Below, piece after piece: positions 2,337-63,365 of a DNA stretch of 64,000 nucleotides. A model generated the notes under the pieces. That model was given only the letters and a program-made list of their open reading frames with translations, was not told where the DNA came from and did no database searches. Numbering within the stretch: position 1 is the first letter of the stretch; each line of letters opens with the position of its first letter. The stretch is from a virus (Duplodnaviria > Caudoviricetes), in IMG/VR virus record IMGVR_UViG_3300031867_000048, positions 854 to 64,853 of that record; one strand, given 5' to 3'. Made by a program: the position numbers and the translations under genes.

Positions 2337-4541
2337 ATGAGCAAGGAACCTACCATACAGAAGCAGAAAGAGATACCCATGAAGGTGCTGACGCAGATCA
2401 TCCTCATGGATATCCTGCGTATGAAGAAGCTCCTCACTCCCTACAATCCCATCACAGGAAAGGATGCTCCTGGCAAACGTGTACGGGTGGTCTTGGCCGA
2501 CTTCCTGCACGGTCAGGAGATGTGGGTACCTGTGGAGATGTTCCGTAGCAAGTTCTTCCGTGCACTGGTCAACTGTGGAACCATCAGCGACTATGTCTCT
2601 CGCTATCTCTATGATGAAGACCCAGAGAATGCACGCAAGGCTGTGGTACATCGCCTCATCCGTCTGCGCTGCCGTCATGACTTCTACTTCTTTGCAGGCG
2701 CGTATGCACGTATAAAGAATAAGGAGGGTGGCGAGGATATTCCTTTCTACCTGCGTCCTGCTCAGGTGAAGCTGTGCATGGTCTTTGAGAAGCTGCGTCT
2801 GGAAGGAAAGTCCATACGTGTCATTCTCTTGAAGTGTCGCCAGTGGGGTGGTTCCACCCTGACGGATATCTACATGGCGTGGATTATGCTCTTCTGGAAG
2901 ACTCACTGGAACTGCAACATCGTGGGTCACCAGTCTACGTCGGCCATCAACGTGTTCAACATGTACGAGCGCCTGATTAATGCACTGCCAGGATGGTTGT
3001 TCTTTGATATCGGGGAACCAATGCCTGAGGATTTCAAGAAAATCAAGGGCGACAAGAATCCGAATATCAAGTATCTGGCTCCTCGCAACTGCATGATACA
3101 GACTGGCTCAGCACTCAATCCTGAGTCGGCACGTTCCTCTGACGTGGCCATGGCCCATATCACAGAGGAAGCGTTCTTCCCGAATACAGAGAAGTGGACT
3201 CCTGCTCAGGTGGTGAAGTCAGTGGTGTCACCTATCGGCAACCAGCCCTACACCTTTATTGTCCGTGAGTCCACACCGAATGGCATGGAGAATGAGTACC
3301 ATGACGAATGGGTGCGTGCCAACAGCAAGGATAAAGAGGGAAAACCGCTGTCATCCTACCTGCCAGTCTTCGTGGCGTGGTTTGAGATTGAGTCATACAT
3401 CAAGCCTTTCAAGGATGACGATGAACGCGCAGACTTCGCCATCTGGCTCTGGCGCCATCGCAAAGATGATACGGGCTATGGTGCTTACTTCTGGCATCTG
3501 TATGAGATAGGCGCTTCGCTGGAGGGTATCAACTGGTACATTGAGAAGCTGAAAGACTACGCCTCTATCGAGGATATGCAACAGGAATATCCGTCGGATG
3601 CTATCGAGGCGTTCAAATACTCAGGTAAGGCAGTCTTCGACATTTATAAGGTGGAACAGCTGCGTGCCGACTGCTGCGATCCTATCTTCATCGGCGACAT
3701 CGAAGGTGACAGCTACGACCCCACCAAGGAGGCTATCGCTCCCAGTGTGTCTGGCGGTTCCGTCCCCAGAACCAAGAAGTACGAGAAGTACGCCTGCATG
3801 CAAAACCTCAGACTGGTACAACAGCCGAATGGATTCCTGCGGGTGTGGGACTACCCGGACTTCTCAGAGACTGTCAAGCATCGCTACCTGATAGCAGTGG
3901 ATATCGGTGGCTCCCACAAAACTTCCGACTGGTCAAGCATCGTAGTCTTTGACCGCTACGATGTCATGTACGGCGGCTATCCTGCCGTGGTAGCAGAGTG
4001 GCATGGTCACTGTAATCCAGACCAGCTGGCTATGAAGTGTGCTCAGCTGGCCCACTTCTATCAGGATGCTTTCCTAGTGGTGGAGAATAACACTGCCTAC
4101 TCAAAGATGAATGATACTGACGGCGATGTGTCTGAGCTGTTCTTCCCTATCCTTGTGCCACTGTATGACAATCTCTACAACAGCAATCACTCCAAGAAGC
4201 TGAAGCATCGCCAGAAGGAAATGACGTGGGGTTTCAATACCAATACCGCTACCAAGGTGGCCATCGTCCAGAACCTTGTCAGTATCATCCGTGACCGTAA
4301 GTACCTGGAACGTGAAGAAGAGTGTCTGAACGAATATGCCTACTACATGCAATATCCCAATGGTAAGTACGGCAACGTGCCAGGAAAGCATGATGACCGT
4401 GTCATGTCCCGTGGCATTGGCCTGCTCGTAGAGAAAGAAATGCCACTACCAGAAATCGTAGTCCAAAAGACTGCCGAAGAGGTGGCCCGTGAAAAGCTAC
4501 GTAAGAAGAAACCTGTCGCTCCAGAACTTATTAACGTATAA
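2337..4541 (+). CDS. terL: Terminase large subunit
   Basis: LLKCRQWGGST Walker A, AHITEEAF Walker B, VRESTPNG, nuclease IAVDIGG, VVENN and KHDDRVM motifs. Confidence 0.93.
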   Translation: MSKEPTIQKQKEIPMKVLTQIILMDILRMKKLLTPYNPITGKDAPGKRVRVVLADFLHGQEMWVPVEMFRSKFFRALVNCGTISDYVSRYLYDEDPENARKAVVHRLIRLRCRHDFYFFAGAYARIKNKEGGEDIPFYLRPAQVKLCMVFEKLRLEGKSIRVILLKCRQWGGSTLTDIYMAWIMLFWKTHWNCNIVGHQSTSAINVFNMYERLINALPGWLFFDIGEPMPEDFKKIKGDKNPNIKYLAPRNCMIQTGSALNPESARSSDVAMAHITEEAFFPNTEKWTPAQVVKSVVSPIGNQPYTFIVRESTPNGMENEYHDEWVRANSKDKEGKPLSSYLPVFVAWFEIESYIKPFKDDDERADFAIWLWRHRKDDTGYGAYFWHLYEIGASLEGINWYIEKLKDYASIEDMQQEYPSDAIEAFKYSGKAVFDIYKVEQLRADCCDPIFIGDIEGDSYDPTKEAIAPSVSGGSVPRTKKYEKYACMQNLRLVQQPNGFLRVWDYPDFSETVKHRYLIAVDIGGSHKTSDWSSIVVFDRYDVMYGGYPAVVAEWHGHCNPDQLAMKCAQLAHFYQDAFLVVENNTAYSKMNDTDGDVSELFFPILVPLYDNLYNSNHSKKLKHRQKEMTWGFNTNTATKVAIVQNLVSIIRDRKYLEREEECLNEYAYYMQYPNGKYGNVPGKHDDRVMSRGIGLLVEKEMPLPEIVVQKTAEEVAREKLRKKKPVAPELINV
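3746..3770 (+). repeat. Footed hairpin element inside terL
   Basis: TGTG-TCTGGCG-GTTCCGT-CCCCAGA. Confidence 0.65.
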
Positions 4542-4545
4542 CAAT

Positions 4546-5031
4546 ATGAAAAAATCTATCAAACATTCCATCCTCAACATCCTGTTCGCATGCTACGAAC
4601 CAGTGATCACCCGTATTGAGAAGTTTCGTGCTACGATGATGTGGCGCGACGGTGTCAAACAATGCATTAAGATGTACAAAGAACTGGCATCGCCTCGCGT
4701 CTACCTGTTCTACGACCAGAAGCATATGGTATGGGCACCGATGACCTACGAACCCAACAAAGGTCTCAAACCGTCACTGCGCATACTCCGTCGCATGGGC
4801 AAGGCCCGTGGCGTGGCAAAGATACAGGGTGTAGAAGGAATGAAAGAGTATAGCTTCTACTATACTCCTTCGAAGTGGGGTGCTCTTGGTTGTGACGAAG
4901 ACAACCGTGTGCGCACTGAAAAGCTAGCAAAGTGGATTGCGTACTACATGACGCACCTGTCAGAACCTATGCGGAAGTGCCAGGCGTTCCGATCGTCGGC
5001 ATCAGGCTCCCACCGTCGCCAGAATTACTAA
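4546..5031 (+). CDS. Hypothetical protein
   Basis: ATG 5 nt after the terL stop; basic 161-aa ORF. Confidence 0.65.
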   Translation: MKKSIKHSILNILFACYEPVITRIEKFRATMMWRDGVKQCIKMYKELASPRVYLFYDQKHMVWAPMTYEPNKGLKPSLRILRRMGKARGVAKIQGVEGMKEYSFYYTPSKWGALGCDEDNRVRTEKLAKWIAYYMTHLSEPMRKCQAFRSSASGSHRRQNY

Positions 5032-7024: not shown

Positions 7025-7048
7025 TGCTTGTCTGATTTTTATTTTGCG

Positions 7049-7139
7049 CAAAAATAAGAAAGATTACATACGTGCGCGTTATAAAATGTATATCATATAT
7101 ATTTTATAATCTTTTATCCGTTCATCATTGCTATCTTTG
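7049..7139. promoter_or_regulatory. Back-to-back pair of late-type promoters
   Basis: Minus: TTTTATAA (7086-7079)-N22-TATTTTTG (7056-7049). Plus: TTTTATAA (7102-7109)-N22-TATCTTTG (7132-7139). Confidence 0.8.
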
Positions 7140-7151: not shown

Positions 7152-7176
7152 AGTGCGGCGTGGTTCTGTCATGCCG
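7152..7176 (+). repeat. Footed hairpin element (5' UTR)
   Basis: AGTG-CGGCGTG-GTTCTGT-CATGCCG. Confidence 0.8.
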
Positions 7177-7657: not shown

Positions 7658-7682
7658 TGTGTGTCGTGGCTCCGTCACGGCA
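7658..7682 (+). repeat. Footed hairpin element (intergenic)
   Basis: TGTG-TGTCGTG-GCTCCGT-CACGGCA. Confidence 0.8.
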
Positions 7683-10317: not shown

Positions 10318-10405
10318 AAATTAGTTTAGAGTAGATTGTTTTAGGTTAGTAGTTTTTTATGGTTAACAAGAAAGGATGCCGTCTGTGAAGATAGCATCCT
10401 TTTTC
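10318..10405 (+). ncRNA. Candidate small RNA (U/G-rich 5' part, GUGA-tetraloop terminator)
   Basis: TATCTTTG at 10307-10314, no ORF, ends in GGATGCCGTCT-GTGA-AGATAGCATCC-TTTTT. Confidence 0.65.
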
Positions 10406-10411
10406 TTTCAG

Positions 10412-10436
10412 TGTGCCTGCTGTCTTTGTCAGCGGG
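10412..10436 (+). repeat. Footed hairpin element (intergenic)
   Basis: TGTG-CCTGCTG-TCTTTGT-CAGCGGG. Confidence 0.75.
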
Positions 10437-10437
10437 T

Positions 10438-13359
10438 CTACAGCTTCGCATACTTGTTGATGGCCTCCATCTCTACCTGCTGGTATTCTTCTGACGGCTT
10501 CATCTGCATATACACAGCAATCCTGAAGAACCTGTACGGACGACCTGGCATGTAGTTATAGAACCACCTGTTGGATGTCCCCAGACTCTGCCAACTCCGC
10601 TGGTCGTTGCTACCAAAGACATACATGGTGGGGGCAACAGCACTGTCAGCATACTGCGTGTATCCTCTGATTACATCCATCGTGTCTGAGAATGTCAGTG
10701 TGCGCGTTATGATCAGTCCTGGCACGGTGGGCGTATCAACACCACCAGCATAACCATACGTCTTGTCAAGTATCATCACCTTGCCGTCACCCAACTGCAC
10801 AAACGGCGACGGATAGCCAGGAATGACGGCTTTGATATTTGGAATAGCCATCGTGCTCCATGCCTCATCTCTGATACTGAAGACCATGGCCACGCCAGCA
10901 TCCACTGTGCCTTCTGCATTAGCTGCAGGTAATACCACTATCCTCTTCGAAGCATAGTCGTAGAACACACTGCCCTGATTGAACAGCTGTACTGCTGGCG
11001 GCATCTGGGCCAACAGCTTGTTGATGGTCTGCTGTGCTACCGTGCCGTTACTGGGGAATGCTGCTACCAGTGTGGGTAACAGGGTGCTCCAGTTTGGTAT
11101 GGGGCCATCCAGCACCTCCGATATGCTCAGCACGTCACTTTCTACAAACCTCGACAGGTTCCTCTCCGTGGCAAACACTACGCTCTGGTCTAGCTGGCAG
11201 ATAGTTTTCGGGTTGCTGCATACCTCTCTAGATATGTTGTGGATGGCGCTATACAGTCCTGTGGAGGCCACCTTCATTACCCAAATACCATCCGTAGAGA
11301 AAGCTATCAGGTCATGGTCACCAACCTGTCCCTGAGACAACGCTCTGGTAACAGCACCCACTCCTTTAATCTTCCCATTACCCACACTATTACGTCCTTC
11401 TACTGGGAAGAAGTACGGGTCATCCACCTCAGATGTCAGTATCTTGTTCGGCATGGGGAATGTATCCATACCAGAAGGAGGATATGGCGCTGGGGCTGTA
11501 ATATCTCCTGTGAGCTGCGTCTTGTAGAACAGACTTGTAGACACTGCCCCGTTTAAGAAGTTGCAAGGCTCCATAGATAATGTCAACATATAGTTGTCAG
11601 TCTTACTATAGTATATCATCATCTTGGTTGCGCGACTGTCAGGATAGTAGAATAAAGCGTTGCACAAGCAATACTCGCGAATGAATCCTCCATAATAGGT
11701 GTGGACGTACTTTTTGCCGTCTTCTGTCTCTAGTTCTACATACACATCTTTAACTCTTACAATGTCAAGATAATCCGTGTCGTCTGGACTAAGTGGTATA
11801 GGATCTGCCTCGTTGATCATTGTGGCGATATTGAAGCCTTGGAATAGTTGCTCCTGCATGCCAAACAAGTTCAAGCGATGGTTATACACATACATACCAC
11901 TCTCGCTGCTTATCGGCGTAAGCTTGTTGTGGGTATGGTATTCATCCCTCTCCATCATTTCCTGGGAGGTTAAGGTCAACACAGCATTTTCGTCAATTTC
12001 TAAATCAGCAAAAGAACCATCTGTACCTATTGTGTCATTTTTAATATCAAAAGACTTGATTTTGTAAAAAGTCGAGCAGTCCTTCAATCGTTGTGTGTAC
12101 TCTTCGTCGCTAGCCATCGGAATAGCAAATTCGTATGTCATCGGGGAAGAAGGGTATGCTCTCCCTTCGTCTGCATCATAATCAACCAGATTTGATTTAA
12201 ACAACGCTGCTTTACTGTCACGAATACCATTATTAGGTATCTCTGGCTTTGCTGACTCTATCAACTCATCTATCTTCTCTCTGGCCATCATGGGTGATAC
12301 AAAGATGTCAATGGACTTGACAATGTCAGACCAGTCTTCTTTCAGACTGTTCAAGGCAGTATTGCTGACGTCTGTTCCAATTGTAGAATACCTAATGTTT
12401 ACATTGTTGGGCTTGTATACAAAGCCAAACCCTCTAATAGCAACACTTTGCCCATTAAGTTCGGCAACGCCATTATAGTCTCCACCCAGGTTTGTGACTT
12501 CTGTAATTCCACTATGAACGTACTTAACCAAATTTGCAGTATATACTCGATAACTCTTTGGTGATGAAATATTCATAAAGACGGGTGCCGAATGCATTGT
12601 TATAGAACCATCATACAAACGGTAACAATAGCGAATAAGAAATGGAGCGTAGAAACGGTCTTTTTCGGCAATCTCATGATTTATCTTATTAACTAGAGCT
12701 TTTATGCCCTCAGAAACGGATGACTTGTAACTCTCTTTAATACCAACTTCAGTTCCGTAAGACCATTCTGTGATGGGATCATCTGGGGATGTTCCTTCCC
12801 AATAGTCCCAAGCGGTTGATCCCCCTACTTTCCCGACTAAATCTGATAAAGTAAAATCTTCGTCGTGGTTCTCAGACGGTCTAAATTTTAAGTCAAGGAA
12901 AGGTATCTGGTTACCAATATACTTATATCCTTCGTCAACACTTTTCCATAGGATATAGTGCACACCACTTTTATTCAGCACTACCAGCGTATTACCTACA
13001 CTCTCAATGGAGATAACCTCGTCGCCTTCGTCAAAGGTATGAAAAGGAGTACCGCCAGTGGTACCAGCTGTGCCGTCTTCATGATACCAAAACAGGTATG
13101 GACGGTTGTAGGCCATTTGCACACCGATAAAGTGCCTGTAACTGGGTGTATCATGTACGTACTTCAGCGTAGAAGCTAGCGTAGAGTCCACCATCTCACC
13201 TTGCACTTCGTGTTGCACCATACTACCCTCCAGTACGCTGGGCCTCAGCGCTCCATCATGAAGCTCCACATTGGCACACAGCGCCAGCTCACCATGCGAT
13301 GCCGACTGCTCATCCTTGTTCAGCGATAACCCCTTGAAACGAATTACTTCCTTTGCCAT
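10438..13359 (-). CDS. Tail/portal-stabilisation-like structural protein
   Basis: About 970 aa, beta-rich, own late promoter; central part (about 11900-13080) visibly more AT-rich. Confidence 0.6.
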   Translation of the reverse strand: MAKEVIRFKGLSLNKDEQSASHGELALCANVELHDGALRPSVLEGSMVQHEVQGEMVDSTLASTLKYVHDTPSYRHFIGVQMAYNRPYLFWYHEDGTAGTTGGTPFHTFDEGDEVISIESVGNTLVVLNKSGVHYILWKSVDEGYKYIGNQIPFLDLKFRPSENHDEDFTLSDLVGKVGGSTAWDYWEGTSPDDPITEWSYGTEVGIKESYKSSVSEGIKALVNKINHEIAEKDRFYAPFLIRYCYRLYDGSITMHSAPVFMNISSPKSYRVYTANLVKYVHSGITEVTNLGGDYNGVAELNGQSVAIRGFGFVYKPNNVNIRYSTIGTDVSNTALNSLKEDWSDIVKSIDIFVSPMMAREKIDELIESAKPEIPNNGIRDSKAALFKSNLVDYDADEGRAYPSSPMTYEFAIPMASDEEYTQRLKDCSTFYKIKSFDIKNDTIGTDGSFADLEIDENAVLTLTSQEMMERDEYHTHNKLTPISSESGMYVYNHRLNLFGMQEQLFQGFNIATMINEADPIPLSPDDTDYLDIVRVKDVYVELETEDGKKYVHTYYGGFIREYCLCNALFYYPDSRATKMMIYYSKTDNYMLTLSMEPCNFLNGAVSTSLFYKTQLTGDITAPAPYPPSGMDTFPMPNKILTSEVDDPYFFPVEGRNSVGNGKIKGVGAVTRALSQGQVGDHDLIAFSTDGIWVMKVASTGLYSAIHNISREVCSNPKTICQLDQSVVFATERNLSRFVESDVLSISEVLDGPIPNWSTLLPTLVAAFPSNGTVAQQTINKLLAQMPPAVQLFNQGSVFYDYASKRIVVLPAANAEGTVDAGVAMVFSIRDEAWSTMAIPNIKAVIPGYPSPFVQLGDGKVMILDKTYGYAGGVDTPTVPGLIITRTLTFSDTMDVIRGYTQYADSAVAPTMYVFGSNDQRSWQSLGTSNRWFYNYMPGRPYRFFRIAVYMQMKPSEEYQQVEMEAINKYAKL
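10906..10929 (+). repeat. Degenerate footed hairpin in coding region (PAANAEGTV)
   Basis: TGTG-CCTTCTG-CATTAG-CTGCAGG. Confidence 0.55.
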
Positions 13360-13415: not shown

Positions 13416-13497
13416 TATGCAATTAAAAAGTTCTATAATCCTTGCAAGTTTGGAAAGAATTAGCTATCTTTGCACCCAGAAACCTAAAACAAGTATT

Positions 13498-18300: not shown

Positions 18301-21300
18301 CGGCTTCACTCTTATTGACCTCCATCACGGCATTCTCACGCTCTGCCTCCAAGTTCTCCCTGCGACGGTCTGCCTCTATCAGGAATGGCAATGCGGCTCT
18401 CAGCTCTTTACCTGTTGCATCAGGTATCCTTGCTGCCAACTCCTTAGCTACGGCATCACTCTTCTTCACAAAGTCATATACCCAGATAGCATCCTCAGCG
18501 TTGGCACTCTCAAAGTCCTTGCGTCTCTCAATGACTGCCAGCTTAGCCATACGCTTGGCTCCCTCTTCGTCAATCTCAAAACCTTCGGCATCAGCGAGGT
18601 CTTTCTCTGCCAGATACTGGGCCTCCTGCTCAGCATCGGTAAAGGTGGGCTGTGGTTCTACAGTTCCCTCATAGATGCGCTGGTCAACGCTCATCTCCTC
18701 TTGCAGGTCGTAGCGTTCTCTCCATGCGGTATAGGCGGCACGGTAGTCCTCGTTGGCACGTCTCAGATAGTCCATCAGCTTAGGCGCTGTTGACCACATA
18801 TCCTTGTCAGACTCGTACTGTGCCACTCTGACAGCATACTCCTGTGGGGTCTCACCGTCCTGTCGCTTCGGGAAAGCACCTAGTCCGTCGGTTCCACTGA
18901 CTCCATTGTCATCCATCCACTCCTGCAGGGCCTGCTTATAGTCAGCCTCGGCTCTTTCGTGGAAGTCCTCTTCCTTGGGTTCTGGGTCGCCATTCTCCTT
19001 GGCCATACGACGAGCTTCACGCCACTTCTCCCACTCCTTCAGGCGCTGGAAGTACTGTGCCATGCTCTCGCCTTTCTTCTGGCGGGGCTTGCCATTCACG
19101 CTACGCATGATGTCATGGTTACTTGCCTGTGCGGAAAGGTTTGCCCTTTCCGTTTCGCTCATCTTGTCCCACTTCTTCAGCGCTGCACCCGTCTTGACAA
19201 TGTAGTATGCAAGGTCTTTGTCGTTCAGCAGTCCACGTACCTTTGCACCCAACTTATTCAGCAGGGCTATCAGATAGTGCTTCACCTTAGTCCACAAGTC
19301 AAACTCGTCGGCTGTCTTGGGGCCTTCCTCGGCAATGTCAGCCAGTATCTCCTGTGCTGCCTTACTGTAGCGTGCACCATCCATCCACTCTGAGTCTATC
19401 TCGTCGGCCTTGTCAAGGATACGCTTGCGCACATTGTTCTTAGCACTGCGATATACAAACGTACCAAACTTGTTTACCTCATCCTGACCACCCAACAGAT
19501 CTACCAGACCTTCATGACCAAGCTTTTCATGGAAAACGGTACGGACAGCGTCATTGGCATCTTCGATATTATCAAGCAACAGTGTTACGGTATGAGTGTT
19601 GGGGTCGTAGATACCCTTGGTACCTGCTTCTATCTCAGCTTTCAGCTTAGCATCGGCATCAGCAGATGTCACGGCATTGACCTTTACGCCTCCCAGTGCT
19701 TCACCTGCAGCCTCAGCAACATCGGCAAAACCAGTAGTGTCATGTGCTGCAAGCTTCTTACCCTTAGAACGCATGATGTCATGCTCATCTTTCCATTCCT
19801 TATACGCTTCCTGACAGTCCTTACCCATACCCTTGTGTGGCGGCAATATCTTCATGCCTCTCTCAGCGAGTATTGGCAACAGCTTCGGTGGTATGATGTC
19901 GAAGTGGATACCATCGGTACCCTCAAACTCCTTCACCCAATCATCGGCAACCTCTTCCCAGGGAACCATGCGGACGGGCTTATCCCAGCGGCTCAGTATC
20001 AGGTATTCACCCTGCGTACCCCACTTATGCTTACCAACAGGCTTAGCGGCCTTGTCAGCGTGGTACTCACCATTCAGCTCACTCTTCGGATACTCCGTCT
20101 CTACATAGATTAGGTTCGGGCGCTCCCATGCCTGCTTGAACTGCTTATTGACCTTGTTAGGACGGATATGGATATACGGATTGTAGTCCACACCACCTAC
20201 GGGCTTGCCATCAGGCTTGATAAGGTCTATCTTACCTTGCTCGTTAGCCAGCTCAGGATGCTCGTCGCTACGCTCCCACTTACCATACTCAAACGGTGTG
20301 GTAGCCTTCTTACCCTCGCCTTTTTTACCCAGACGGTTAGCCATCGGACTACCCAGCGTGCCGTCCTCGTTGGCTACCACATTCCTGTAGCCAACCTCCT
20401 TCGGTTCCTTATCCAAACGCTTTACGGTCTCAGGGTCATCCTCGATATGGAACATAAGTTCTGCACGCTTCTTGATTTTCAGGTCATCAACATTATATAT
20501 AATATAGGTGGTGCCATCGCTGCCTTTGACCTTAGATCCGACATAACCTAATTCAGAGAATATCTTAGAGACGTCTTCTGATGGAAGAAACTGCTCCATG
20601 ACACCCCTTGCGGCATCACCAGTACCCTCATTAGAGTCTACGATTTTCCACTCATAGTCAATGATGTCGCGGTTCTTCTTCCAGTATTCAGCCTCATCAC
20701 CGCTGTTTATTCTTTCAAAGAAGGCTTTCTTAATATCTTCCTTTTGTTTCTTGGTGAGCTTCTTGTCAAGGTCAAAATAGTTCTTACCAGTATCATCTGG
20801 AATTTCTACCTCATAGACCTGCTTAGCAGGCTGCTCTACAATCTCTTCTTGGAAACCGAGAGTGCCAGGATGCTCTTTCTCCTGAAGCAAATAGTCCATG
20901 GCCTGCTCTGCATTGCTCTTGCCAGCATCAGGAAGAGACCCAAACGGGTTTTTGTCTCTGTGTCTGTTCAGTATTTCAATGGTATGCTCACAGGCTTTGA
21001 TAGCCTCGTCAACATTGTTGTCGGCTTTCTTCAGATATTCGTTAGCCCTGACCAAAGCTGGATCGTGTACTATCTCACCATTAACAGTATAGCCCATTTT
21101 CTGGATAACATTTCTGCGTCTGTCAGAAGACACCTTGGCGTAGTAGCGGGCTGTGCCCTCAGAAGAAGTTACATAAATGCCATGACCAGATACGGCCTGT
21201 CCTTCACCAGAACCGACTTTTGAAAGGTCAAACTTATCAAAGATGGCGCTGCTGCCATGATAGCCTAACATGGCATTGGCATCGTCGTACGGGTCTGCCA

Positions 21301-24300
21301 CCTTCATCACTTTTTCAAAGTCCTGATTAACCAGGTCTCTGATAGGCATGCGGATAATGGCATCCAGACTCGTCCAATCGTCACCAATGGTTTTGGTATG
21401 CTTGCCAAACAGCCTCAGCACAGCCTCCCAGAACTTTCTCAGGGCATTCTTCACCTCATTGATAATGCTCTTCGGAGTATTCTTCTTAAAGGCTGCTTTC
21501 ATGAACTCATCCTCTCCAGCTGCACCGGACAGACGGGCGTGTACCTCTGAAGCCATACGGTTCTCGTCGTTCCAGATGTTGCGGTAGTTAGGATTGCTGG
21601 CCACCTCTTCCCACATAGCGGTCTTCTTCATGGCGGCAACAAGCTTTTGCCACAAATCAGGATGCTCCTTCATGCACCAGTTATCCCAAAGGTGGGTAGT
21701 CTCATGCAACGGCGTGTTGGGGTTCAGACCGTCCTTTGTCAGGTACACCTGCTTACCATCACTCCATCCCAGCAACTTTTTACCCTCCTTCTGGAACATC
21801 GGCTGACCCTGCATGACAGACTCCCTCATTTCAGGAGTAACGTCGATGCTCCACATGGTAACGCCATCGTTTTCAAGTGCTGGCAGGTCAATCTTCTCTA
21901 CCTTGACACCCCACTTCTTACCATACTTATTCATGAAGCGTGGAAGCATCTCATCATAGAAGCCTTTCATGCCCTCACCACCAATGCGTAAACCGTCGCC
22001 ACTGATTTCGGCGGTTCCGTCTGGATGTTCATCGGCCTCCTTTATGATACGGGCACCAAGGTCTTTGCCAAAGTTCTGAAGTATCTGCTCTTTTGTCAAT
22101 AAGCCTTCCATGCCTTGCTCATGAATATAGCCACCTCTCTTATCCTTGACAAATACATCGTACTGCTCAGGAATGACTTCACCAGTCATGGGGTCACTGT
22201 GCGGATAGGCATTGATGCTATCAATGACACCTCCAAGGTCGTAGCGGTCTGCCTGCTGGTCACCAGTAGTCCAGGCCACCTTATCGTAGCCGTTCTCGGC
22301 TGCGTATCTCAGCATGCGCTTCATAGCCAGTTCATGCCAGTTCTTATCAAATGGGGCATCAGGAATATCTGAACCGCTAAACGGACCATATCCGTTTTCT
22401 TGCAGATATTTATTATAGTCTACTCTAACCTGCATAGTCTTATTGAAAAGATCGCCCATTTTCGACCTCTCTTCTTCTGTAAGACCATAACTGATATCAT
22501 CACGACCATACTTCTTACGAAGCTCAGAAGAATAGTTGTGGTATTCTTCATTGGCTTTGTCGTATGCCATCTTTTCAGGAGCATCGGCTGGCGGGTCTAC
22601 TCGATACCCTTTATCTCTACCCTCCTGATGACGCTTTGACTGTATCTCGTCAATGACCAGCACCTTCTTCTTTCCTTCGTCGAAAGTTTTGCTGTACTCA
22701 TCTTCCAGACGCTGCATTTCTGCATGTTCCTCGTCGGTCATCTTTGTAGACAGTTCCAACGGGTCATCACCTGTAGCATACTTCTCAACTAGTGAGTCGT
22801 AGTAGGTATCCAAAGCTTTCTTAGCGGCTTGGTGATTTGCACTCATACCGTGTTCTATCTCGGTATCACCAAAGCGTACCCAGGCAACAGCACGGCCTCC
22901 TCCAGCATCTCCAAAGTGTATCTCGTCACTTTCGTTCCATGGTTCTATGGTGGGAACTGTCAAAGCTATTTCACGCTTGTTATCTAGGCCATTGGTGGTA
23001 TAGGCCATACGTGTTCCGTTTATTGGGTTGTCGATATCAACCTCTACACCTAGCATCTTGGCTGCATCTTGAAGGTATCTAGGATTACGTACTACCAGAT
23101 TTTCTGTGTCACGCGTAGCAAAATAGGTAATAAAGTCGCTGCCATATTCCTCACGCAACTTTTCAAAAGCTGCATTCTTGGCCTGTGAAGGACTGTCAGC
23201 TTCCTTCCTTGCTTCATGATACAACTCACTCCAGCGCTTGTTAAGAGCTTCCATTGGCTCCCGCATGGCCTTTGGCAAACTGCTTACTGATAAAGAGTCG
23301 TAGTCTTCATCTTTCCGGTCTCTCTTGATGTTGCTGTAGTTAACATCTTCTACCTGTATCTGGTTCTTACGGATATAGTCCAGGAGATCTTGCTTGGTGA
23401 CGCTACCTTTCTGGTCCTTCAGCCAGTCAGAGAGTCCCAGCCACTTATCTTCGCCAGCTTTCAGACCGCCATTCTTCTGTAGCATGGCCAGCCACTGCTC
23501 AGGGGTAGCTTTCTCCTGTTTGATAGCCTCAACAGCACTCAGTGCATTACTGATAAAGATAGGTGCCGCTGTGCTCGTAGCGTTATCTGCGGGTTCATCA
23601 CCCCACATGAAGGAAATAGTCTGCACTATCTTGGCATCGTCCTCGTTAAAGATGACATAGTTGGTAGCACCATTGCCACCTCCCCAGATGGTGCCAGCAG
23701 GATACTTCACACCGACAAAGCCTAAGCTGTTCATCAGCTTGCTAACTCTCTCAGCATCTTTCACCCTGCCACCAAAGGCCATCAACAATCTGTCGTGTAT
23801 CTCCTTGTAGGCAAACTGCTCGCGCTCTATCATGTCAGCCAGCGACTCCCAGCCATTCTTGTAGTTGGTATAGATGAAACTCTGCTTTGGCTCACCATCC
23901 AGCTGACGGACAGCATCGGCAATCTTCTTGCGCAACGGTTTCTTGATGGTTACCATCCAATCAAGATAGTTGTCGCCAGTGTCTTCTGGGATTTCCACCT
24001 TGTAGAGAAGTCTCTTATCTGTCAGATCTGCGTCGCGTACCTTAAAGTCGGACTTCTTGGAGTTCTTCAGGATATTCAGCACTTCTTGCCAGGTATCCTT
24101 CATATCTTGCTCTTCGGCATAATCCATCAAGCGCTCTACAAAAGTAACAGCCTTTCGGATGGTTCCCTCACTATTCAGCGTATCGTATGCCAGACGGAGT
24201 GGGTCAAGCTTGCTCTGGTCAAGGTCAATCTTCTCGCCTTTGTACAATACTTCCTTACCGTTATATCCAGGAGTCTCATCGTTGTATTTTCTCTTGGCTA

Positions 24301-27300
24301 CAGAGTTTGCATAGTCTTCTGCAATTTTCTCGCCATCGGTGAGATAAGTACCCCAGCCAAACACCTGACTGCCTGCACCCTTGCCCATATTGCTATGGTC
24401 AAACTTGGTAAAGGTATAGCCACTGCCATGCCACGTCTCAATGTCGGCCTGCAAGTCCATCGGATTATTTACCTCCTCTGGCTGGGCAATACCTGTTGTA
24501 TCCTTATACTCACCACTGTAAAGCATCTGCTCTACAGACTTTACAATCTCAGAATACGGGCTACCATCAGCCTTACGAAGCTCCTTGTCAGGATAGAAAT
24601 ATTCTACAATATGGGCATTGCCATCGTTTGTAACGCCCGCATTAGGCTTTCGTGAAATGACAATGCTGACACCATTGGGTTCCTCACTATAGTCAAAGTT
24701 GCTGACTGTGACATTATGGTCGGCAAGGCGAAGAGTAACAACAGTTCCGTTCTTGGCCTCAATCGTCACATACTGGCTGTTTGAACCACGTTTCTTGGCT
24801 CCAACGGCCTTTGCAAGCAACGAAATAAAGCGGTTTTTCTCCTCGTTTGATATTTTTTCGGTGTTTTTTGCAAGAGTTTCAAGATTATTTTGTACCTTTG
24901 CAAAGTCAGAGTCAGTAACGACGGCGTCTTTTAACGGTGACTTTTCACCTAATGCGGTTGCTGAAGCTGACGTTTTTTTGTCACCTCCCATCATTTGCAT
25001 CAGTTCGTAGTACTCCGCTGCCTTACGTTGAATTTGTGACTGTGCCGCAACATCCTCAGGATACCCTATATCCATTATCTCCCAGCTTCCATCAGGAACC
25101 AGACGCTGCATACTTTCCAAACCAAACTTGGCAGTACTCAGTTTCTCAAAATACATGGGCACACCGTATGGGTTTGACATATCGTAGATAATGTATCGAC
25201 CTCTGCTTCCGTGCGGACTATTAGCACGCATATAAGCACTACGGGCAAACTCCTTGATAGGCTCCTGGTTCATCATAGAGAAGATCTTTAGCATCTGCTT
25301 CTCTTCTTCCTTGCTGACGGCCTTATAAGGAACGCCTGCATTATCCATCGCTTTCAGCACGGCCTTGGTAGCAAGCTGTTTCACACGCTCGTCTTCGGTC
25401 TTAGGTTTCCTGCCCAGGTACTGTTTGATAATATCATCAGCCTCCTTCTTATCCTTGGAAACCTCTTTACGACGCTCAACCTCTTTTAGCACTTTCTCAA
25501 CAGCATCCTGCGATTTGGCTACAGCCACTGTGCCCGTAGCATCAGCTTCGGGTTTCTCTGACTCTACATCAGCGCTCTCCAAGAATGCCATCTTGTAGCC
25601 TGCCTTTACCAGCTTAGGTGACAACGTATCAAACTGTTTTTGAGATACGGTAACAGTCTGCATGCCATCACGCTCACCTTCGCTGGTGTACGTATTGCCT
25701 ACGGCCTTAGTGCTGTCGCCAACAAAGACATAGCCATCATCAGTGGTATATCCTACTAGCCCATTCTCGCCAGCTTGCTTCTTCAGCTCTGCCAGCCTCT
25801 TACCAAGTGGACTGTTTAGGTTAAAGCCATGCATATCCATGACCACTGTCCCCGCTGCTTCTCTAGCGGGTTCCTCAAAGTCCTCATCACTGAACAGATT
25901 ACCCTCTTCTATCATGAACTGGAAGCGGTCGCTCAGCGGAATGACGTTACCGTTCTTGTCGGTAACCACTGGCTCTGCGCTCTTCAATGAGGCCACATGC
26001 TTGCGCTTCTCTACACTGTCTGCAAGGCTTGCAACGATACCCTTGCCTAGTGCCTGGATACATGCCTCAGCGGTATTGCCAGTATCTACCACATTGTCAA
26101 TGACCACTGGCAGCTTATCGGCAGGCAGCTGGTCTGTAGCTGCTACAATACCCATCTCACTGGAAGCAATAGGCTTGCCAGCATACTTGGCTTTGTACTG
26201 ACTGGGGCGCTCACCACTTGTCAGAACGTCGGCAACGGGTGCGCCTGTGCGCTCTGAGATAGCCTTGGCCAAATCCAGCATGTCGGTAGCCTTACCACTG
26301 TGACTGGGCGCTGGTACCAACACGGCATCCTTTGGAATCAATGGGGCCATCATGTCGGCAACCTTGGCAATTACCTGTGGGTCACGCTCCTTAACGGCAT
26401 GGGCCAATGGACGCATCTTGCGGTAGCCTTCTACAGCGATATACGGTGTGATACCGTTGCCGATATTCTCCCTGAGGGCTGCATCAAACAGCTCCTTGGC
26501 CTTGGCATTGTCACCAGCCTCAACAGCTTTCACGTAATCGTTATCACGCTCTTTCAGCCACTGCTCTACACGCTTGCGTGGGTTCATCTTGTTAGCGAAG
26601 TCACGCACTACCTGGTCATAGACCTGCTCAGCACTCTCGTACTTGATATGCAGGAAGTCACCAATGGCTTTCCAGAAGTCCTGAATGGCCTTGCTGATAT
26701 TCTTCCAGATGTTTCCCCACTTGCTCTTGTAGTTCGGGTCGCGCTGGTTCATACGGGCGTACTCCTGTTCTGCCCACTCAGCGCCACGCTGGCCACTGCA
26801 CTTGGTAATCATCTCCTCGGCAATATCATCCTCGCTCTTCAGGTCGGGGTTCAATGCCTTGATAAACTCCCAAGTATCCTTGTCGGCTTTCATCAGGCCA
26901 ACAATATTCTGCCATCCTTCAGGGTTCAGCCTGCGGAATGCTTCGCACCATGGATGGGCGTACTCATGGATGGGCAGCTCAGCATCAATCTTGCGGGGGT
27001 CCAGATACATCTTACCTCTGTAGACAAAACCGTAGATCTTGCCATCAGGGGTTTCAAAATGTCTCAGTTTACCCTCTTCGCTGTTGTCTTTCTCAGCCTG
27101 CTTGCGTACCTTACGCATCTCTGCTGGGTCGGTGCTGACGTCAAATCCCATACCTTCCAGCTGGTCAACCATAGCGCCACCAATCTCCTGCTGCTCTACG
27201 GCCTGACGGAAGAGGTCGGACTTCTTCTCTATCTCCTTGTCAATGGCAGCAATATCAGCGGTGGCTTGTGCTACAGTGTTCTGCAGCCTCACACCTTTCT

Positions 27301-36478: not shown

Positions 36479-36997
36479 ATGAAGAAAGAAACCAAGAAGA
36501 AAGCTACTACCACCACTCCCGCTGCATCAGCTACGGGCACTACTTCTGCTGTCGACAGCAAAGGCAAGCTACGCGACGAAGAAGGGAAGTTTACCAAAGG
36601 TCACAAGAAAATAGGTGGGCGTGTTGCTGGTACGAAGAACCGCAACAGCTCCATCCGTGATATCCTGAAGGAACAACTAGAACCATTCATCAAAGAGATT
36701 TCTGTCAACCTGCTAAAAGTACAAAGAGAAGAAGGTACTGCGGCCATGATGACGCTACAGGAAAAGTATATGCCTTACTTTGTTCCAAAGCTACAGTCCA
36801 TGTCACTGTCTGCTGATCAGGACAGACCAATCTCTGAAGAAGAACGACTGCTGGAGCTGGATGGCCTCTACACCAAGAAAGAACTATCCATTAACTTCAA
36901 ATCCATGACAGTGGTCAACAATGATAAGATGCGTGGTGCTGACCCAGACTCTGACGAGGATGACTTCGACCTGAGCATCTTCGACACTAAAGAATAA
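36479..36997 (+). CDS. terS: Putative terminase small subunit
   Basis: GKFTKGHKKIGGRVAGTKNR resembles the GGRxxGxxN DNA-binding motif of TerS-like proteins; late promoter. Confidence 0.55.
   Translation: MKKETKKKATTTTPAASATGTTSAVDSKGKLRDEEGKFTKGHKKIGGRVAGTKNRNSSIRDILKEQLEPFIKEISVNLLKVQREEGTAAMMTLQEKYMPYFVPKLQSMSLSADQDRPISEEERLLELDGLYTKKELSINFKSMTVVNNDKMRGADPDSDEDDFDLSIFDTKE
36518..36541 (-). repeat. Footed hairpin inside terS (the only minus-oriented copy found)
   Basis: Minus strand AGTG-CCCGTAG-CTGATG-CAGCGGG. Confidence 0.7.
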
Positions 36998-37034: not shown

Positions 37035-37059
37035 TGTGCCCGTAGGTTTTATCTACGGA
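37035..37059 (+). repeat. Footed hairpin downstream of terS
   Basis: TGTG-CCCGTAG-GTTTTAT-CTACGGA. Confidence 0.75.
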
Positions 37060-52334: not shown

Positions 52335-52338
52335 CATC

Positions 52339-52965
52339 ATGATGACTCTTGGCACAACAGTATATTTGGCATGGTACGACTTCCAGAAGCAGACGGAACA
52401 CATCTGCAAAGGTGAGGTGGTTGACAATGAGCTGTGGGCTGGCACCAAGCAGGCAGACATGATCAATGTCAGCTTCCAGCCGCCTGGTATGAAAGCACCC
52501 ATCTGCCACCACTTTACTGCTGATAAGCTTTCTGAAGATGCTACCAACGTCCCCCACGACGACTGTTACCTTGTCTGTGGCAAAAAGACCCGTGCTTTTG
52601 AGCACGACCACACTGTGCGACGTGGCTCCGTCACGTCGGCCACCTCTCCCTCCGATGCCTGGCAACGTAAGGAACAGTTTAAGGCAGACCATTGGGACTA
52701 TGAGCACGGCCACCTGTGGCTGGAATACCTCGACGAGTTCTACCAGCTCTGGCGTGATGCCATTGCAGCAAAGCTTGGCTATCCATCACAGTGTCCGACG
52801 GTTTCCCCTTCGGTTCCAGACCAGCCTGTACCGAAAAGTGCTCCAGTCACTCTGCCGTCACATAAGGAAGCCACCACTCCTGCTGCATCTCCAGCAGGAA
52901 AGCGCAAGCGCACCACTGGAACTATCACATATAACGACTCAATACAAACCTCATTATTCGAATAA
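52339..52965 (+). CDS. Hypothetical protein with low-complexity linkers
   Basis: Contains in-frame palindromic elements. Confidence 0.65.
   Translation: MMTLGTTVYLAWYDFQKQTEHICKGEVVDNELWAGTKQADMINVSFQPPGMKAPICHHFTADKLSEDATNVPHDDCYLVCGKKTRAFEHDHTVRRGSVTSATSPSDAWQRKEQFKADHWDYEHGHLWLEYLDEFYQLWRDAIAAKLGYPSQCPTVSPSVPDQPVPKSAPVTLPSHKEATTPAASPAGKRKRTTGTITYNDSIQTSLFE
52614..52638 (+). repeat. Footed hairpin in an early gene
   Basis: TGTG-CGACGTG-GCTCCGT-CACGTCG (perfect stem). Confidence 0.8.
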
Positions 52966-52969
52966 CATT

Positions 52970-55670: not shown

Positions 55671-55695
55671 TGTGCCCGCTGGTTCTGTCAGCGGG
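55671..55695 (+). repeat. Footed hairpin (intergenic)
   Basis: TGTG-CCCGCTG-GTTCTGT-CAGCGGG (perfect stem); a degenerate neighbour lies at 55703-55727. Confidence 0.8.
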
Positions 55696-55698: not shown

Positions 55699-56166
55699 TT
55701 ATTGCGCCTTGCGGCTCCGTCGTATGGATATTAGTACCACTCCGGCTACGAATCCTATCAGTGCTCCTGCCAGCCATTCCCTGACACTCTCCCAGAGTGT
55801 GTGCGGCTTCTCCACCACCACTTTCTCTGTCTTCTGCTCTTTCATTGCCTGGTCACGCTGGCTCAGTGCTTCCCTGAGCATGGCCTTATAGATCTGCGTA
55901 CTGTCAGTCTTCTCACGGAAATGCTCCATGTTATGCCAGGACTCCTTGCTCTTGATATTTCCATGTTCGTCTTTGACAATAACAGTGCTGTCCTTGATAC
56001 GCACAGAGTCCTTGATGTTGGTAACTATCCGTGTGGAGTCTTTGATACGCACAGAGTCCTTGATATTCACGCTGTCACGTATATCACGCTCCTCTGTCAA
56101 GCTATGGCTGGTTTTACAACCAACCATAGCTGTCAGCGCTACAAATAACAATATTATCTTTTTCAT
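55699..56166 (-). CDS. Lipoprotein with C-terminal TM helix (unimolecular spanin-like)
   Basis: MKKIILLFVALTAMVG-C lipobox, repeated (I/V)(K/R)DS(V/T) beta units, C-terminal WLAGALIGFVAGVVLI helix; late promoter. Confidence 0.65.
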   Translation of the reverse strand: MKKIILLFVALTAMVGCKTSHSLTEERDIRDSVNIKDSVRIKDSTRIVTNIKDSVRIKDSTVIVKDEHGNIKSKESWHNMEHFREKTDSTQIYKAMLREALSQRDQAMKEQKTEKVVVEKPHTLWESVREWLAGALIGFVAGVVLISIRRSRKAQ

Positions 56167-56234: not shown

Positions 56235-57266
56235 TTAATTATCTTCATCGTAACAGATGTATCTGTTGAATGCTTTCTCGCTCGAATGGCCCGTTGCTCT
56301 CAGAATCTTGTTTCGTGGTATGTTTCGCAGGGTGTTGATGGTGGCGAATGAGCGTCTTGCACTATGAGAAGATATAAGCTGGTATCTCAGTTTCGTCTCG
56401 CGGGTAATAACGCCGTTAATCTTATTATCAATATGCACCTCGTCCATGAAGTCCTCGCCTATATGGTGCAAAAGCTCATGCAGATACGTGTTGTAGTTGT
56501 TGATGTCGCCCGTATATGGCGCATGGTAGCCATATTTCTCCAGTATGGCAAAGGTGATACGGCTGTCGATGCTCAGCGAGTTGATAGGCACGAAACACTT
56601 GTTGCCTGTCTTCTGCTGGACTATCGAGAACTGCCCATTGCGGAAGTTCTCAGGACTGATGCGCACAAGGTCGGAATATCGCTGACCGAGGTTGCAGCCA
56701 AGCACGAACATGTCACGCACTCGTTCCAATGTCTCAATCTTGTTCCGGCGCAGTTTCAACACCTTCTTCGAGCGGAAACTGTATGTCGGCTCTTGACCAA
56801 TCTTGAAGTGATAGATGTGCGAGATTTCATCAGGCGTGAGCGAAATCTTGCTGGGGATGTAGTTCGGGATGTCAACCTCGGAATAACTTGGATTGAGCTT
56901 AACACCATACTTCGACGACCAGTTGAGCACCGCAATCAGGTTGGCTTTTACGTGGCCGATGGTAGAGTACTTCAGTCCTTGGTCTGCCAAGAACGGAACG
57001 AAGTGATTCCAGAATACAGAACTAATCATGGCAGGCATGATGGTGCAACCAAACTGCTGCTCGATGTCCTCCAACTTGTTCACCAGCATGCGGTAATTCT
57101 GTTTAATCTTGGGATGCGAACGTGACTTGATCTCGCACATCTTACTAATACACTCGATAAGTGTACAGTTGCTCAGATCGAGCGAAAACATGTCACTCAT
57201 ACTTGATGCCAGGAACTCGCGGAATCCGCTGTTGGCATTACTCTGATAAAATCCTTGCATCATCAT
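56235..57266 (-). CDS. Second tyrosine recombinase (no arm-binding domain)
   Basis: LGQRYSD (R), QQKTG (K), SHSARRSFAT (HxxR), TGHSSEKAFNRY (H, Y); likely start MMMQGF at 57266. Confidence 0.88.
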   Translation of the reverse strand: MMMQGFYQSNANSGFREFLASSMSDMFSLDLSNCTLIECISKMCEIKSRSHPKIKQNYRMLVNKLEDIEQQFGCTIMPAMISSVFWNHFVPFLADQGLKYSTIGHVKANLIAVLNWSSKYGVKLNPSYSEVDIPNYIPSKISLTPDEISHIYHFKIGQEPTYSFRSKKVLKLRRNKIETLERVRDMFVLGCNLGQRYSDLVRISPENFRNGQFSIVQQKTGNKCFVPINSLSIDSRITFAILEKYGYHAPYTGDINNYNTYLHELLHHIGEDFMDEVHIDNKINGVITRETKLRYQLISSHSARRSFATINTLRNIPRNKILRATGHSSEKAFNRYICYDEDN

Positions 57267-57452
57267 ATCTGTATCTGCAATAAATATGGGGCAGCGTTGC
57301 GCGTTGCTATGGCCATTCATGCAAATGCCACCAGGTCCTTTCGGATGACTGACGCTGCTGCCCCAATGGGGTTCAATTACAATAATATGGCAGATACAAC
57401 AAATGCCACCTATGATGGCGGCATCGACGTACCGCATGAATGTTTAAGCGGT
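57267..57452 (-). ncRNA. Structured 5' leader of the recombinase
   Basis: Promoter TATCTTTG (57461-54); nested stems TGTATCTGC/GCAGATACA and TGGGGCAGC/GCTGCCCCA, TCC-GAAA-GGA, two 5' hairpins. Confidence 0.6.
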
Positions 57453-62256: not shown

Positions 62257-62886
62257 TTACATGTTCTTAAATCTGTCGGCTATTGCGCCTTCTTTCTTCC
62301 CTTCAAAGAAGATGCTGGCAGCACGGAAGATAACTTGCTGCTCAGCCTCACTGCGGATGCTACATACAATAGCGGGTAGAGTGGTAATTTCTTCTGTGAC
62401 CGTGTTGATAACCTCAGGGGTGGCGATATACGCCAGCTCTGCGCTAGTGTGTGCATTATCTCCTGGCCACCAGACAATGACTTTTGCCCCTGTCTCGTCC
62501 AGGTCAAGCATGGCCTTGGGCTTGCTGGCGGTTGCACGGCTCCAGGCACTGCTCTGCATCTTTTCCTCGTCGCTGCCAGCCTCCATCAAGCTACGGATGA
62601 TGCCTGCGGTGTTTGTTACGTCCAGATAGACAAAGCGGAGATAGTCATCTCCTACCTTATCATAGGCAAAACCTCTGGTGCTGTCTACAGTTCCTCCCAG
62701 TGCCTTGATGCTTCCGTCCAGCATATCTAGCGGCAACTCCAAAGACAACTGTATGGCGGCCTGCTGTACTGCCTGCCACAACTCATCATTGACATCGGTC
62801 TCAAAGCTGTCAGTGACTCCTGAGGGAACAATGTCATCAATGGCCTTACGTATCTTACCGATAATGTCTGTCTTGGTGATAACCAT
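62257..62886 (-). CDS. Head-closure/adaptor-like protein
   Basis: Position downstream of the MCP; helical ends with a beta core. Confidence 0.5.
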   Translation of the reverse strand: MVITKTDIIGKIRKAIDDIVPSGVTDSFETDVNDELWQAVQQAAIQLSLELPLDMLDGSIKALGGTVDSTRGFAYDKVGDDYLRFVYLDVTNTAGIIRSLMEAGSDEEKMQSSAWSRATASKPKAMLDLDETGAKVIVWWPGDNAHTSAELAYIATPEVINTVTEEITTLPAIVCSIRSEAEQQVIFRAASIFFEGKKEGAIADRFKNM

Positions 62887-62888
62887 AG

Positions 62889-63365
62889 CTATAGCTCTTT
62901 ATACTTGATAATGATGCCGTGCTCCTTGGCAACCTTGGCCAAAGCGGTGGGGTTGCGTACTTCAGCTTTCTTGATTTTCAGTTCCTTACAGATAGTCTCC
63001 CTGGCAACGGTATAGTTGTCAAAAACTCTCTCCTTGGGGTCTGCGTTGGTACTCACCGGCGTAGGTGCTGGTGTGGCAGCTGTTCCTGCCGTGGTTCCTG
63101 CTGCGGTGCCCGTAGCGGCAGCTGCGGGTTTCTTTACCACTCCCGTAGTGTCAACTGCGGGTTGTGCGCTCTTTACGGTGGTTTCCTGGATAACTCTTCT
63201 ACGACTCAGTGGGTGTCTACGGATGACGTTGGCCACCTTCTCGTCACTGGTCATAAAGATAGCGACACCTGCCTGATTACGATTACCAAAGGATACCAGT
63301 CTGTTACGACCTCCTACGGATATGATGAATGACAGCTGTCGCTGCGCTGCAAATGTATATTCCAT
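62889..63365 (-). CDS. Hypothetical protein downstream of the MCP with A/T/P-rich linker
   Basis: Start MEYTF at 63365. Confidence 0.65.
   Translation of the reverse strand: MEYTFAAQRQLSFIISVGGRNRLVSFGNRNQAGVAIFMTSDEKVANVIRRHPLSRRRVIQETTVKSAQPAVDTTGVVKKPAAAATGTAAGTTAGTAATPAPTPVSTNADPKERVFDNYTVARETICKELKIKKAEVRNPTALAKVAKEHGIIIKYKEL
63105..63128 (+). repeat. Footed hairpin in coding region (PAAAATGT)
   Basis: GGTG-CCCGTAG-CGGCAG-CTGCGGG. Confidence 0.7.

Follow-up and report, generated by a model that had tools for sequence, protein, structure and literature searches.

The 64,000-nucleotide window analysed here (positions 854 to 64,853 of IMG/VR virus record IMGVR_UViG_3300031867_000048, so that it covers 64.0 kb of a 64,853-bp record rated complete) belongs to a temperate Prevotellaceae phage and carries, almost exclusively on one strand, many copies of a short hairpin preceded by a three- or four-nucleotide tag. 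We conclude that these are probably hairpins of the repetitive extragenic palindrome (REP) type, which in Prevotellaceae are tied to the REP-associated tyrosine transposase (RAYT), and that they were most likely laid or copied on the phage in trans by a host enzyme. In anatomy and position they match tagged REPs (PMC3733652). Their density and absolute polarity are new for phages, as are the in-frame copies in the terminase large subunit (TerL) and in virion proteins.

An earlier note, made from the letters of this DNA alone, had described a single family with an NGTG foot, a 7-bp stem, and a 6- to 7-nt loop. The hairpins it located are all present as described, but they belong to two families, and its list of about 16 missed the family A copies at 2304, 19128, 30758, and 63382 and the family B copy at 23570. 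Family A consists of TGTG, a 7-bp stem closed by a G-C pair, and the 7-nt loop GYTCYGT, and occurs on the + strand only, in 13 solid copies and 3 weak ones; family B consists of GTG, an 8-bp stem (CCCGTAGC/GCTGCGGG), and four loop nucleotides, for example ATCA, where the note had drawn a 6-nt loop (7 copies, 6 of them on the + strand). The + strand polarity that the note had reported is therefore complete for family A, the sole reversed copy (36518) being a member of family B.

The excess and the polarity both withstand controls. A scan of both strands of the kind that the note had proposed, here for TGTG followed by a 7-bp stem and a 7-nt loop, returned 11 matches on the + strand and 2 on the − strand, compared with 1.65 ± 1.31 (maximum 6) in 60 dinucleotide shuffles. 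A non-circular test starts from the loop and only then asks for pairing and foot: the motif GYTYYGT occurs 51 times on the + strand, 7 times with at least 6 of 7 flanking pairs, and in all 7 of these the foot is correctly spaced; none of its 41 occurrences on the − strand has paired flanks and foot. A covariance model (R1) built from 13 copies and run with filters off placed its 18 best hits in the window all on the + strand. Loop and tag are conserved in family A (TGTG lies 5′ of the palindrome foot in 11 of 13 copies, AGTG and TGCG in the remaining two), and the stem is variable and covarying, with 6 of 7 stem pairs changed on both sides across copies. Pairing is kept despite differing stems, as claimed: 94.5% of stem cells are paired compared with 56.8% in shuffles, a figure that is not independent because the copies were partly picked for pairing. 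The reported prevalence of G-T among the imperfect pairs of the foot strand is borne out as well (G·T to A·C on the tag strand is 6:1 in the window and 21:7 across six phage genomes, binomial p = 0.006), and agrees with the behavior of TnpA-REP, which binds single-stranded REP with its 5′ GTAG but not the complement (PMC3333891, PMC8266576).

Position also follows REP habits. Of the 13 solid copies in family A, 7 fall between genes, compared with 6% of the window being non-coding, and the copies at 2304, 7658, 10412, and 55671 lie 0 to 4 nt from a stop codon. All copies are singletons save 55671 and 55703, which form a direct tandem; inverted doublets, the bacterial interspersed mosaic elements (BIMEs) or REP doublets forming hairpins (REPINs), are not a common unit here. 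Family B is distinctive in that all 7 copies encode a peptide of the type P-A-A-x-A-T-G-T, always in one frame and in the direction of the carrying gene; the earlier reading of this peptide in four proteins was correct.

Each of five related phage contigs has its own tag and hairpin family, with GTAG, GTAT, or GTGC as tag in relatives. With + as the TerL-sense strand, and under a counting rule that treats G·T and A·C equally, the window (G000; TGTG, stem, GYTCYGT) has 13 copies on the + and 0 on the − strand; G011 (L008; TGYG, stem, GTTTYCC) has 15 and 0; G004 (L003; GTYCY-GTAT-GYTGCNN-TAYCA-NNGCARC) 11 and 0; G005 (GTTCY-GTAG-GCCGCTG-CTGTG-CAGCGGC) 15 and 0; G006, with the same type as G005, 10 and 0; and G010 (L007; GTGC-CCGCCGY-RTYA-RCGGCGG) 8 and 0. 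The look at related phages that the note had suggested thus gives 72 copies on the TerL-sense strand of six genomes and none on the other. By place, 31 are intergenic (non-coding DNA is only 4–12%), 32 antisense, and 9 sense; many lie 0–12 nt from a stop codon, and the bases directly ahead of the tag can form a TAG stop. These numbers follow how much coding DNA each strand carries, and orientation is therefore independent of transcription. In L014 one element is translated in two frames, and in L007 the element occurs in gaps as well as in both gene senses, which makes these elements of DNA rather than of peptide.

Comparison of orthologous sites reveals insertion and turnover. The copy at 3746 is a 27-nt, 9-residue in-frame insertion in TerL relative to L003 and L004, and the copy at 63382 lies within about 35 nt that are absent from L003. 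The note had asked whether the protein linkers are insertions, and alignment with orthologues shows this for 3746 and for 25529 (10 residues); 10906 lies in a variable linker, and 23570 shows a 3-residue indel. L003, the nearest relative, has exchanged its whole family, its flanking genes being still 75% identical, with its own hairpins at sites matching 2304, 7152, and 7658; one TerL loop holds different families in different phages; and the linker of a 158-residue protein bears, in the orthologues of G010 and G011, the family of the respective phage. Copy 19128 has persisted at its site in both L007 and L008, where one pair has changed in a compensatory way, and L009 has an 18-nt deletion there. 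Between G005 and G006 (89–92% identical) we find one indel of about 50 nt bearing an element and two decayed in-gene copies. The indels in TerL and G006 have no clean duplicated ends. By inspection, likeness between the 5′ flank and the 3′ arm is confined to the copies 2304, 3746, and 19128, and target duplication was rejected on these two grounds. More distant relatives (TerL 39–60% identical) have no hairpin family, as judged from Bacteroides phage BS-TP4 and Segatella copri prophages.

The same hairpin types are found in host chromosomes, as the survey of candidate Prevotella hosts proposed in the note was meant to ask. Among 151 Prevotellaceae genomes, R1 detected family A-type hairpins in 13, five of which have at least three hits. 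In G040, about 24 copies of TGTG-TTCTGCG-GTTNNNC-CGCAGAA adjoin housekeeping genes (LpxB, tRNA-synthetase, CPSase, PFOR); G091, G038, G029, and G001 have several copies each, and in G091 there are copies inside glutamate synthase, class I tRNA synthetase, and peptidase genes. The type shared by family B and G010 has 17 dispersed copies in G038, 3 of which flank a RAYT-like gene; the G005 type is found 28 times in Prevotella RUG137, spread over more than 20 contigs and for the most part in a version with a compensatory stem change; and the G004 type lies within and next to RAYT-like genes in G162. The host loci with hairpins show no similarity to the phages and no TerL of their clade. That the R1 hits in G001 are a coding accident of the peptide V-x-D-G-S-x-V was considered and, for the type as a whole, rejected, since the intergenic G040 family shows the type to be a DNA repeat.

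Linkage to RAYT is statistical as well as physical. A RAYT-like family (A3; about 330 residues, with the motifs MPDHLH and Y-I/L-x-x-NP and weak Y1_Tnp matches) occurs in 30 of the 151 genomes: in 9 of 13 that are R1-positive, 21 of 138 that are R1-negative (Fisher p = 6.5e-5), and all 5 with at least three R1 hits. The RAYT-like gene of G091 has an R1-type copy 10 nt ahead of its ATG and an inverted copy in frame inside it; R1-type copies lie inside the RAYT-like gene of G029 (seen in the sequence) and inside the RAYT-like match of G035 (by coordinates only). Counting G038 and G162, a cognate RAYT-like gene is accompanied by repeats of the phage types in five genomes, the arrangement called a REPtron, and repeats inside the RAYT gene are a described trait of RAYT subclass 2.4 (PMC6006769). 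These chromosomal counterparts and their RAYT linkage support one of the readings in the note, colonisation of one strand by a host REP family. Short classical Y1_Tnp genes (152–165 residues, 72–81 bits) also occur in Prevotella RUG137 (L062), G091 (L066), and G038 (L067), flanked on both sides by the REPs CAACCGC-TCC-GCGGTTG, GTGCCCT-NNN-AGGGCAC, and CCCAGGG-N5-CCCTGGG; we rejected such short genes (G015, G091, G038) as partners of the phage hairpins because these flanking families differ from the phage ones. At another locus of G029 (L092, C22:92-206), three hairpins of the family A type, repeated in tandem every 39 nt, form an in-frame array in the sense of an open reading frame (ORF).

A second case is provided by the complete genome G162, whose host REP family has about 17 copies in either orientation along 2.9 Mb, or about 1 per 170 kb. 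A siphovirus-like prophage in this genome has 6 REPs of the host family in 14 kb, all on one strand, and is unrelated to the window phage, having a different set of TerL, portal, capsid, and tape-measure proteins. Two regions, C1 6.7–20.5 kb and 2126–2141 kb (L098), contain matching sets of 5–6 REPs in opposite chromosomal orientation, four of them identical in the matched sequence; the latter region is the siphovirus-like prophage by scan, and the former is presumably a second copy of it. The chromosomal copies of G162 show no clean two-arm (replichore) pattern of orientation.

We propose the following scenario. A 4-nt tag 5′ of a short palindrome marks a REP-type element, which in bacteria is recognised, in its folded single-stranded form, by RAYT (TnpA-REP) enzymes of the Y1 HUH class; a host enzyme of this type could act on it in trans while the phage lives and replicates in RAYT-bearing hosts. 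The complete phage genome has no Y1 HUH gene (PF01797; tblastn with six RAYT-like proteins), in line with the earlier remark that no HUH transposase is in the window; as the phage lacks a RAYT-like gene, its copies were most likely seeded or copied by the host enzyme, and as RAYT lies beside the same types in hosts, we file the phage copies as non-autonomous members. They may persist only where they do little harm, in gaps at gene ends or, in frame, in flexible protein linkers. We infer that the polarity stems from some process in which a single phage strand becomes exposed as single-stranded DNA (ssDNA) genome-wide, candidates being unidirectional or rolling-circle replication and one-way passive replication as a prophage; selection acting against the opposite orientation could account for it instead. 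The GC3 skew fits a process that runs one way over the entire phage genome: referred to the + strand, it is negative for 22 of 26 gene segments, in both gene senses, with no flip along the genome.

Several observations weigh against this scenario. The absence of a Y1 HUH gene from the phage is itself one; others are that the exact loop GYTCYGT of the window is carried by no host family among the genomes examined, and that BIME or REPIN doublets are nearly absent. The phages are 20–60 times denser in hairpins than the host genomes examined, and hosts are only moderately polarised (orientations are mixed, for example, on two G040 contigs and along G162), so that simple spill-over fails to explain 72:0. 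In the metagenome-assembled genome G001, which contains the related prophage L017, the L003-type pattern is found only within the prophage, and in G162 the host family has no copy close to the wider-clade prophage whose TerL lies at 0.899 Mb. Strains 95–99% identical to the window phage show neither gain nor loss among the four copies covered, and hence no sign of recent movement (this comparison used four metagenome runs as assembled contigs, with X2 and X3 identical and counted as one data set). Finally, the tag strand is the C-rich strand in the phage, opposite to the prediction of the IS608 model if the G-rich strand is the lagging-strand template. In hosts, the tag strand is the locally C-rich strand in 15 of 18 copies.

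Might the hairpins instead be working phage signals in ssDNA, serving the priming of discontinuous synthesis, replication or recombination, or nicking as in T5 and tf, and read by a co-evolving phage or host protein? We regard this as unlikely, and note that it is compatible with a REP-like origin followed by co-option. It would account for a polarity of 72:0 regardless of gene direction, for a spacing of about one per 2–5 kb, and for lineage-specific families at recurring sites (upstream of TerL, the gaps at 7152 and 7658, the TerL loop, and the 158-residue linker); a tag 5′ of a hairpin on one template strand has the geometry of a start site; and both the compensatory change in the coding copy 19128 and the substitution T2308C, which improves a pair, speak in its favor. 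But the same types lie beside bacterial housekeeping genes and inside RAYT-like genes, and an unrelated G162 prophage shows the same pattern with the family of its host. No primase, HUH protein, polymerase, or other reader was found in about 40 phage ORFs by Pfam and PHROGs searches that left out the 6273-residue protein; L003 swapped its family while its flanking genes stayed 75% identical; and relatives at 39–60% TerL identity do without any family. Within the region common to the window, L003, and L008, nothing shows greater similarity in the two phages with the same hairpin type, and a co-evolving phage reader was rejected on that ground. After the G001 comparison a phage-intrinsic signal had been favored, a view that was reversed by the wider host surveys (RUG137, R1, and RAYT linkage). 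The phage signal that the note had offered as its other reading, tied to packaging or ejection, to replication, or to the orphan recombinase, is not needed, and nothing tested supports it. The note had also set against such a signal an unpolarised, abundant host REP with no positional conservation among related phages; a host REP type is indeed what we find, but it is perfectly polarised and far denser in the phages, and some sites recur among relatives.

A role in RNA, with the hairpins as 3′-end stabilisers, terminators, or processing sites at gene borders, would suit the many copies 0–12 nt past the stop codons of genes on either strand, and REPs are known to stabilise upstream mRNA (PMC3733652). 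It seems quite improbable, as orientation ignores transcription, copies within genes cannot be 3′ ends, and such a role would not yield strand polarity of tag and loop; moreover, an Rfam search with the hairpins returned nothing at the gathering score. The hairpins lack a T-run behind them on either strand, and the classical terminators are separate (near 10384 and 63420), so that intrinsic terminators were rejected. Nor do we give much credence to family B being a peptide motif (for example a linker or protease site) whose palindrome is a codon by-product: all 7 copies, including the reversed 36518, do keep the frame and the sense of the host gene, and 5 of 7 stem pairs are dictated by the amino acids alone on direct reading of the sequence, but the near-identical G010 type lies in gaps and in both gene senses, the same type is dispersed in G038 and flanks a RAYT-like gene, copy 25529 is an insertion relative to its orthologue, and the intergenic family A copy 37035 has a family B stem.

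Among known systems the closest are tagged REPs and their RAYTs, in particular the small perfect palindromes of group 3 and the Bacteroidetes and Cyanobacteria subclass 2.4, with which the phage hairpins share i) a tetranucleotide 5′ of a 20–25-nt palindrome (PMC3733652, PMC3333891, PMC8266576, PMC6006769); ii) lineage-specific families; iii) placement at ORF 3′ ends with a possible TAG stop ahead of the tag; iv) some in-frame genic copies; and v) copies beside or inside a RAYT-like gene in Prevotellaceae genomes. Tagged REPs are dispersed palindromes of 20–50 nt, mostly extragenic and near stop codons; TAG can stand ahead of the tag, and some copies are in frame in genes (PMC3733652), and single small REPs are known in group 3 systems (PMC8266576). 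The phage case differs in that the elements lie in genomes without the enzyme, one per 2–5 kb and on one strand; that nearly all are singletons rather than BIME or REPIN doublets; that TGTG, GTG(C), and GTAT are used as tags besides GTAG; and that in family A the loop is conserved and the stem variable. The ends of IS200/IS605 elements and their miniature derivatives (IS608, ISDra2) likewise combine a hairpin with a 5′ guide tetranucleotide on one strand, read there by a Y1 HUH enzyme, and their orientation is linked to replication (PMC3333891, PMC6006769), whereas the hairpins here do not come as separate left and right ends and carry no cargo, the phage lacks a transposase, and the tag strand is C-rich. 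The localised nicks of T5, phiKMV-like phages, and tf (PMC3517423) also place a short motif about a dozen times on one phage strand, but they are nick consensus sequences not known as units of tag and hairpin. Literature word searches on polarised phage hairpin repeats returned nothing direct.

Rickettsia palindromic elements (RPEs) and other intragenic REPs resemble the genic copies in being in-frame palindromic inserts that add a short peptide at permissive sites. RPEs are about 100–150 bp long and have not, to our knowledge, been reported as strand-polarised; the inserts here are 24–30 nt and lie in phage TerL and virion proteins. Two further candidates were rejected. Integron attC sites are imperfect palindromes of 57–141 nt with R″/L″/L′/R′ boxes and extrahelical bases, located beside cassettes and IntI, while the phage units are 24–25 nt with regular 7–8-bp stems, lie partly inside genes, and form no cassette array; N4-type promoters are hairpins with a 3-nt loop on the template strand, found only upstream of early genes, while the loops here have 7 or 4 nt and copies lie inside genes, at convergent ends, and genome-wide.

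The individual copies are distributed as follows (family A with R1 scores; + strand unless stated). Copy 2304..2328 (TGTG TTCGCTG gtttcat CAGCGAG, 32.8 bits) begins 1 nt past the stop of the 1821–2303 gene and ends 8 nt ahead of the TerL ATG; in four metagenome runs T2308C converts its T·G pair to C-G. The TerL copy 3746..3770 (35.1 bits) is in sense and read as S-V-S-G-G-S-V-P-R. Copy 7152..7176, with foot AGTG (35.2 bits), lies between the divergent portal (−) and 7171 (+) genes, and the top hit 7658..7682 (38.9 bits) lies 4 nt past the stop of the 7171–7653 gene and 17 nt ahead of the 7700 gene. Between convergent genes, 10412..10436 (33.9 bits) directly follows the classical terminator at about 10384 and is 1 nt from the stop of the 10438–13359 (−) gene. 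The gene for the 6273-residue protein has antisense copies at 19128..19152 (26 bits), 30758..30782 (33.7 bits), and 33872..33896 (32.6 bits; read A-E-T-E-P-Q-P-T), and weak antisense copies at 20861..20885 (15.8 bits, E 0.16) and 33310..33334 (foot TGTT, 18.8 bits). In the convergent gap after the 36479–36997 gene, 37035..37059 (30.3 bits) has the family B stem CCCGTAG. A copy with a perfect stem at 52614..52638 (36.9 bits) is in overlapping + ORFs at 52.2–53.3 kb, and a weak degenerate one is at 52790..52814 (18.1 bits). Perfect stems are also found at 55671..55695 (37.3 bits), 3 nt from the stop of the 55699–56166 (−) gene and in direct tandem with 55703..55727 (foot TGCG, 20.4 bits), and at 63382..63406 (37 bits), 16 nt upstream of the start of the 62889–63365 (−) gene.

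In family B, 10906..10929 is antisense in the gene for a 973-residue protein and read P-A-A-N-A-E-G-T within the variable linker. Four copies lie in the giant gene: 23570..23593 (P-A-D-N-A-T-S-T, at the 3-residue indel relative to G010), 25529..25552 (P-E-A-D-A-T-G-T, the insertion being relative to the G011 orthologue), 25847..25870 (P-A-R-E-A-A-G-T), and 31643..31666 (P-A-A-D-A-T-G-T). The reversed copy, 36518..36541 on the − strand, is in the + gene 36479–36997 and read P-A-A-S-A-T-G-T, and 63105..63128 lies in the linker of the 158-residue protein (62889–63365, −).

The phage genome encodes TerL (2337–4541, +), a portal protein (4967–7051, −), a Dda-like helicase (13417–15348, +), and two tyrosine integrases (37330–38817 and 56235–57437), both of which match phage integrase families in Pfam and PHROGs scans. 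The ORF for the 6273-residue protein (15395–34216, −) makes up 29% of the genome and carries 5 family A and 4 family B hairpins. The closest named phages are temperate Bacteroides phages (TerL 39% identical); nearer relatives are IMG/VR contigs (TerL 62–88%) and prophages in Prevotellaceae and Segatella genomes, and nearly identical DNA is present in goat and bovine gut metagenomes. The distant relative BS-TP4 has an annotated reverse transcriptase (L001 35987–37477); none was noticed in the window, where no search aimed at one was made. The + ORFs 52240–52965 and 52538–53281 overlap by about 430 nt in different frames precisely at hairpins 52614 and 52790; the translation of the latter ORF is of low complexity and has no Pfam match, so that one or both may not be genes. 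Classical terminators of hairpin and T-run at 10384–10410 and about 63407–63450 adjoin the REP copies 10412 and 63382, indicating that the phage also employs ordinary terminators. Among variants, 44 nt between the 973-residue and helicase genes (13392–13437) are exchanged for 125 other letters in two metagenome runs, and one variant has a 10-nt insertion at position 10353, in non-coding DNA ahead of the terminator.

Accounts of REPs and RAYTs usually treat them as components of bacterial chromosomes that are passed on vertically. Plasmids seldom carry RAYT genes (PMC5581495), and it is not yet clear by what route REPs spread (PMC8266576). The phage genomes described here have no such enzyme and are filled with REP-type hairpins, all on one strand and 20–60 times as dense as in the host genomes examined; some add peptides to terminase and virion proteins. 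Since two unrelated phage types show a dense one-strand pattern of the family of the host, we suggest, tentatively and as a long shot, that temperate phage genomes are a preferred substrate of the Prevotellaceae RAYT/REP system and that the host enzyme marks the strand exposed in replication; in that event phages would carry REP families between hosts, and REP-marking could be a handle on phage ssDNA for host or phage, with a role for RAYT in defence or control. We wish to stress for annotation that in-frame hairpin inserts and "conserved intergenic hairpins" in phages need not be regulatory signals. If the REP reading holds, these phages would offer a natural system in which to watch REPs spread (by phage passage in hosts with and without RAYT), a possible route for REP families between hosts, and a read-out of which phage strand is single-stranded in replication.

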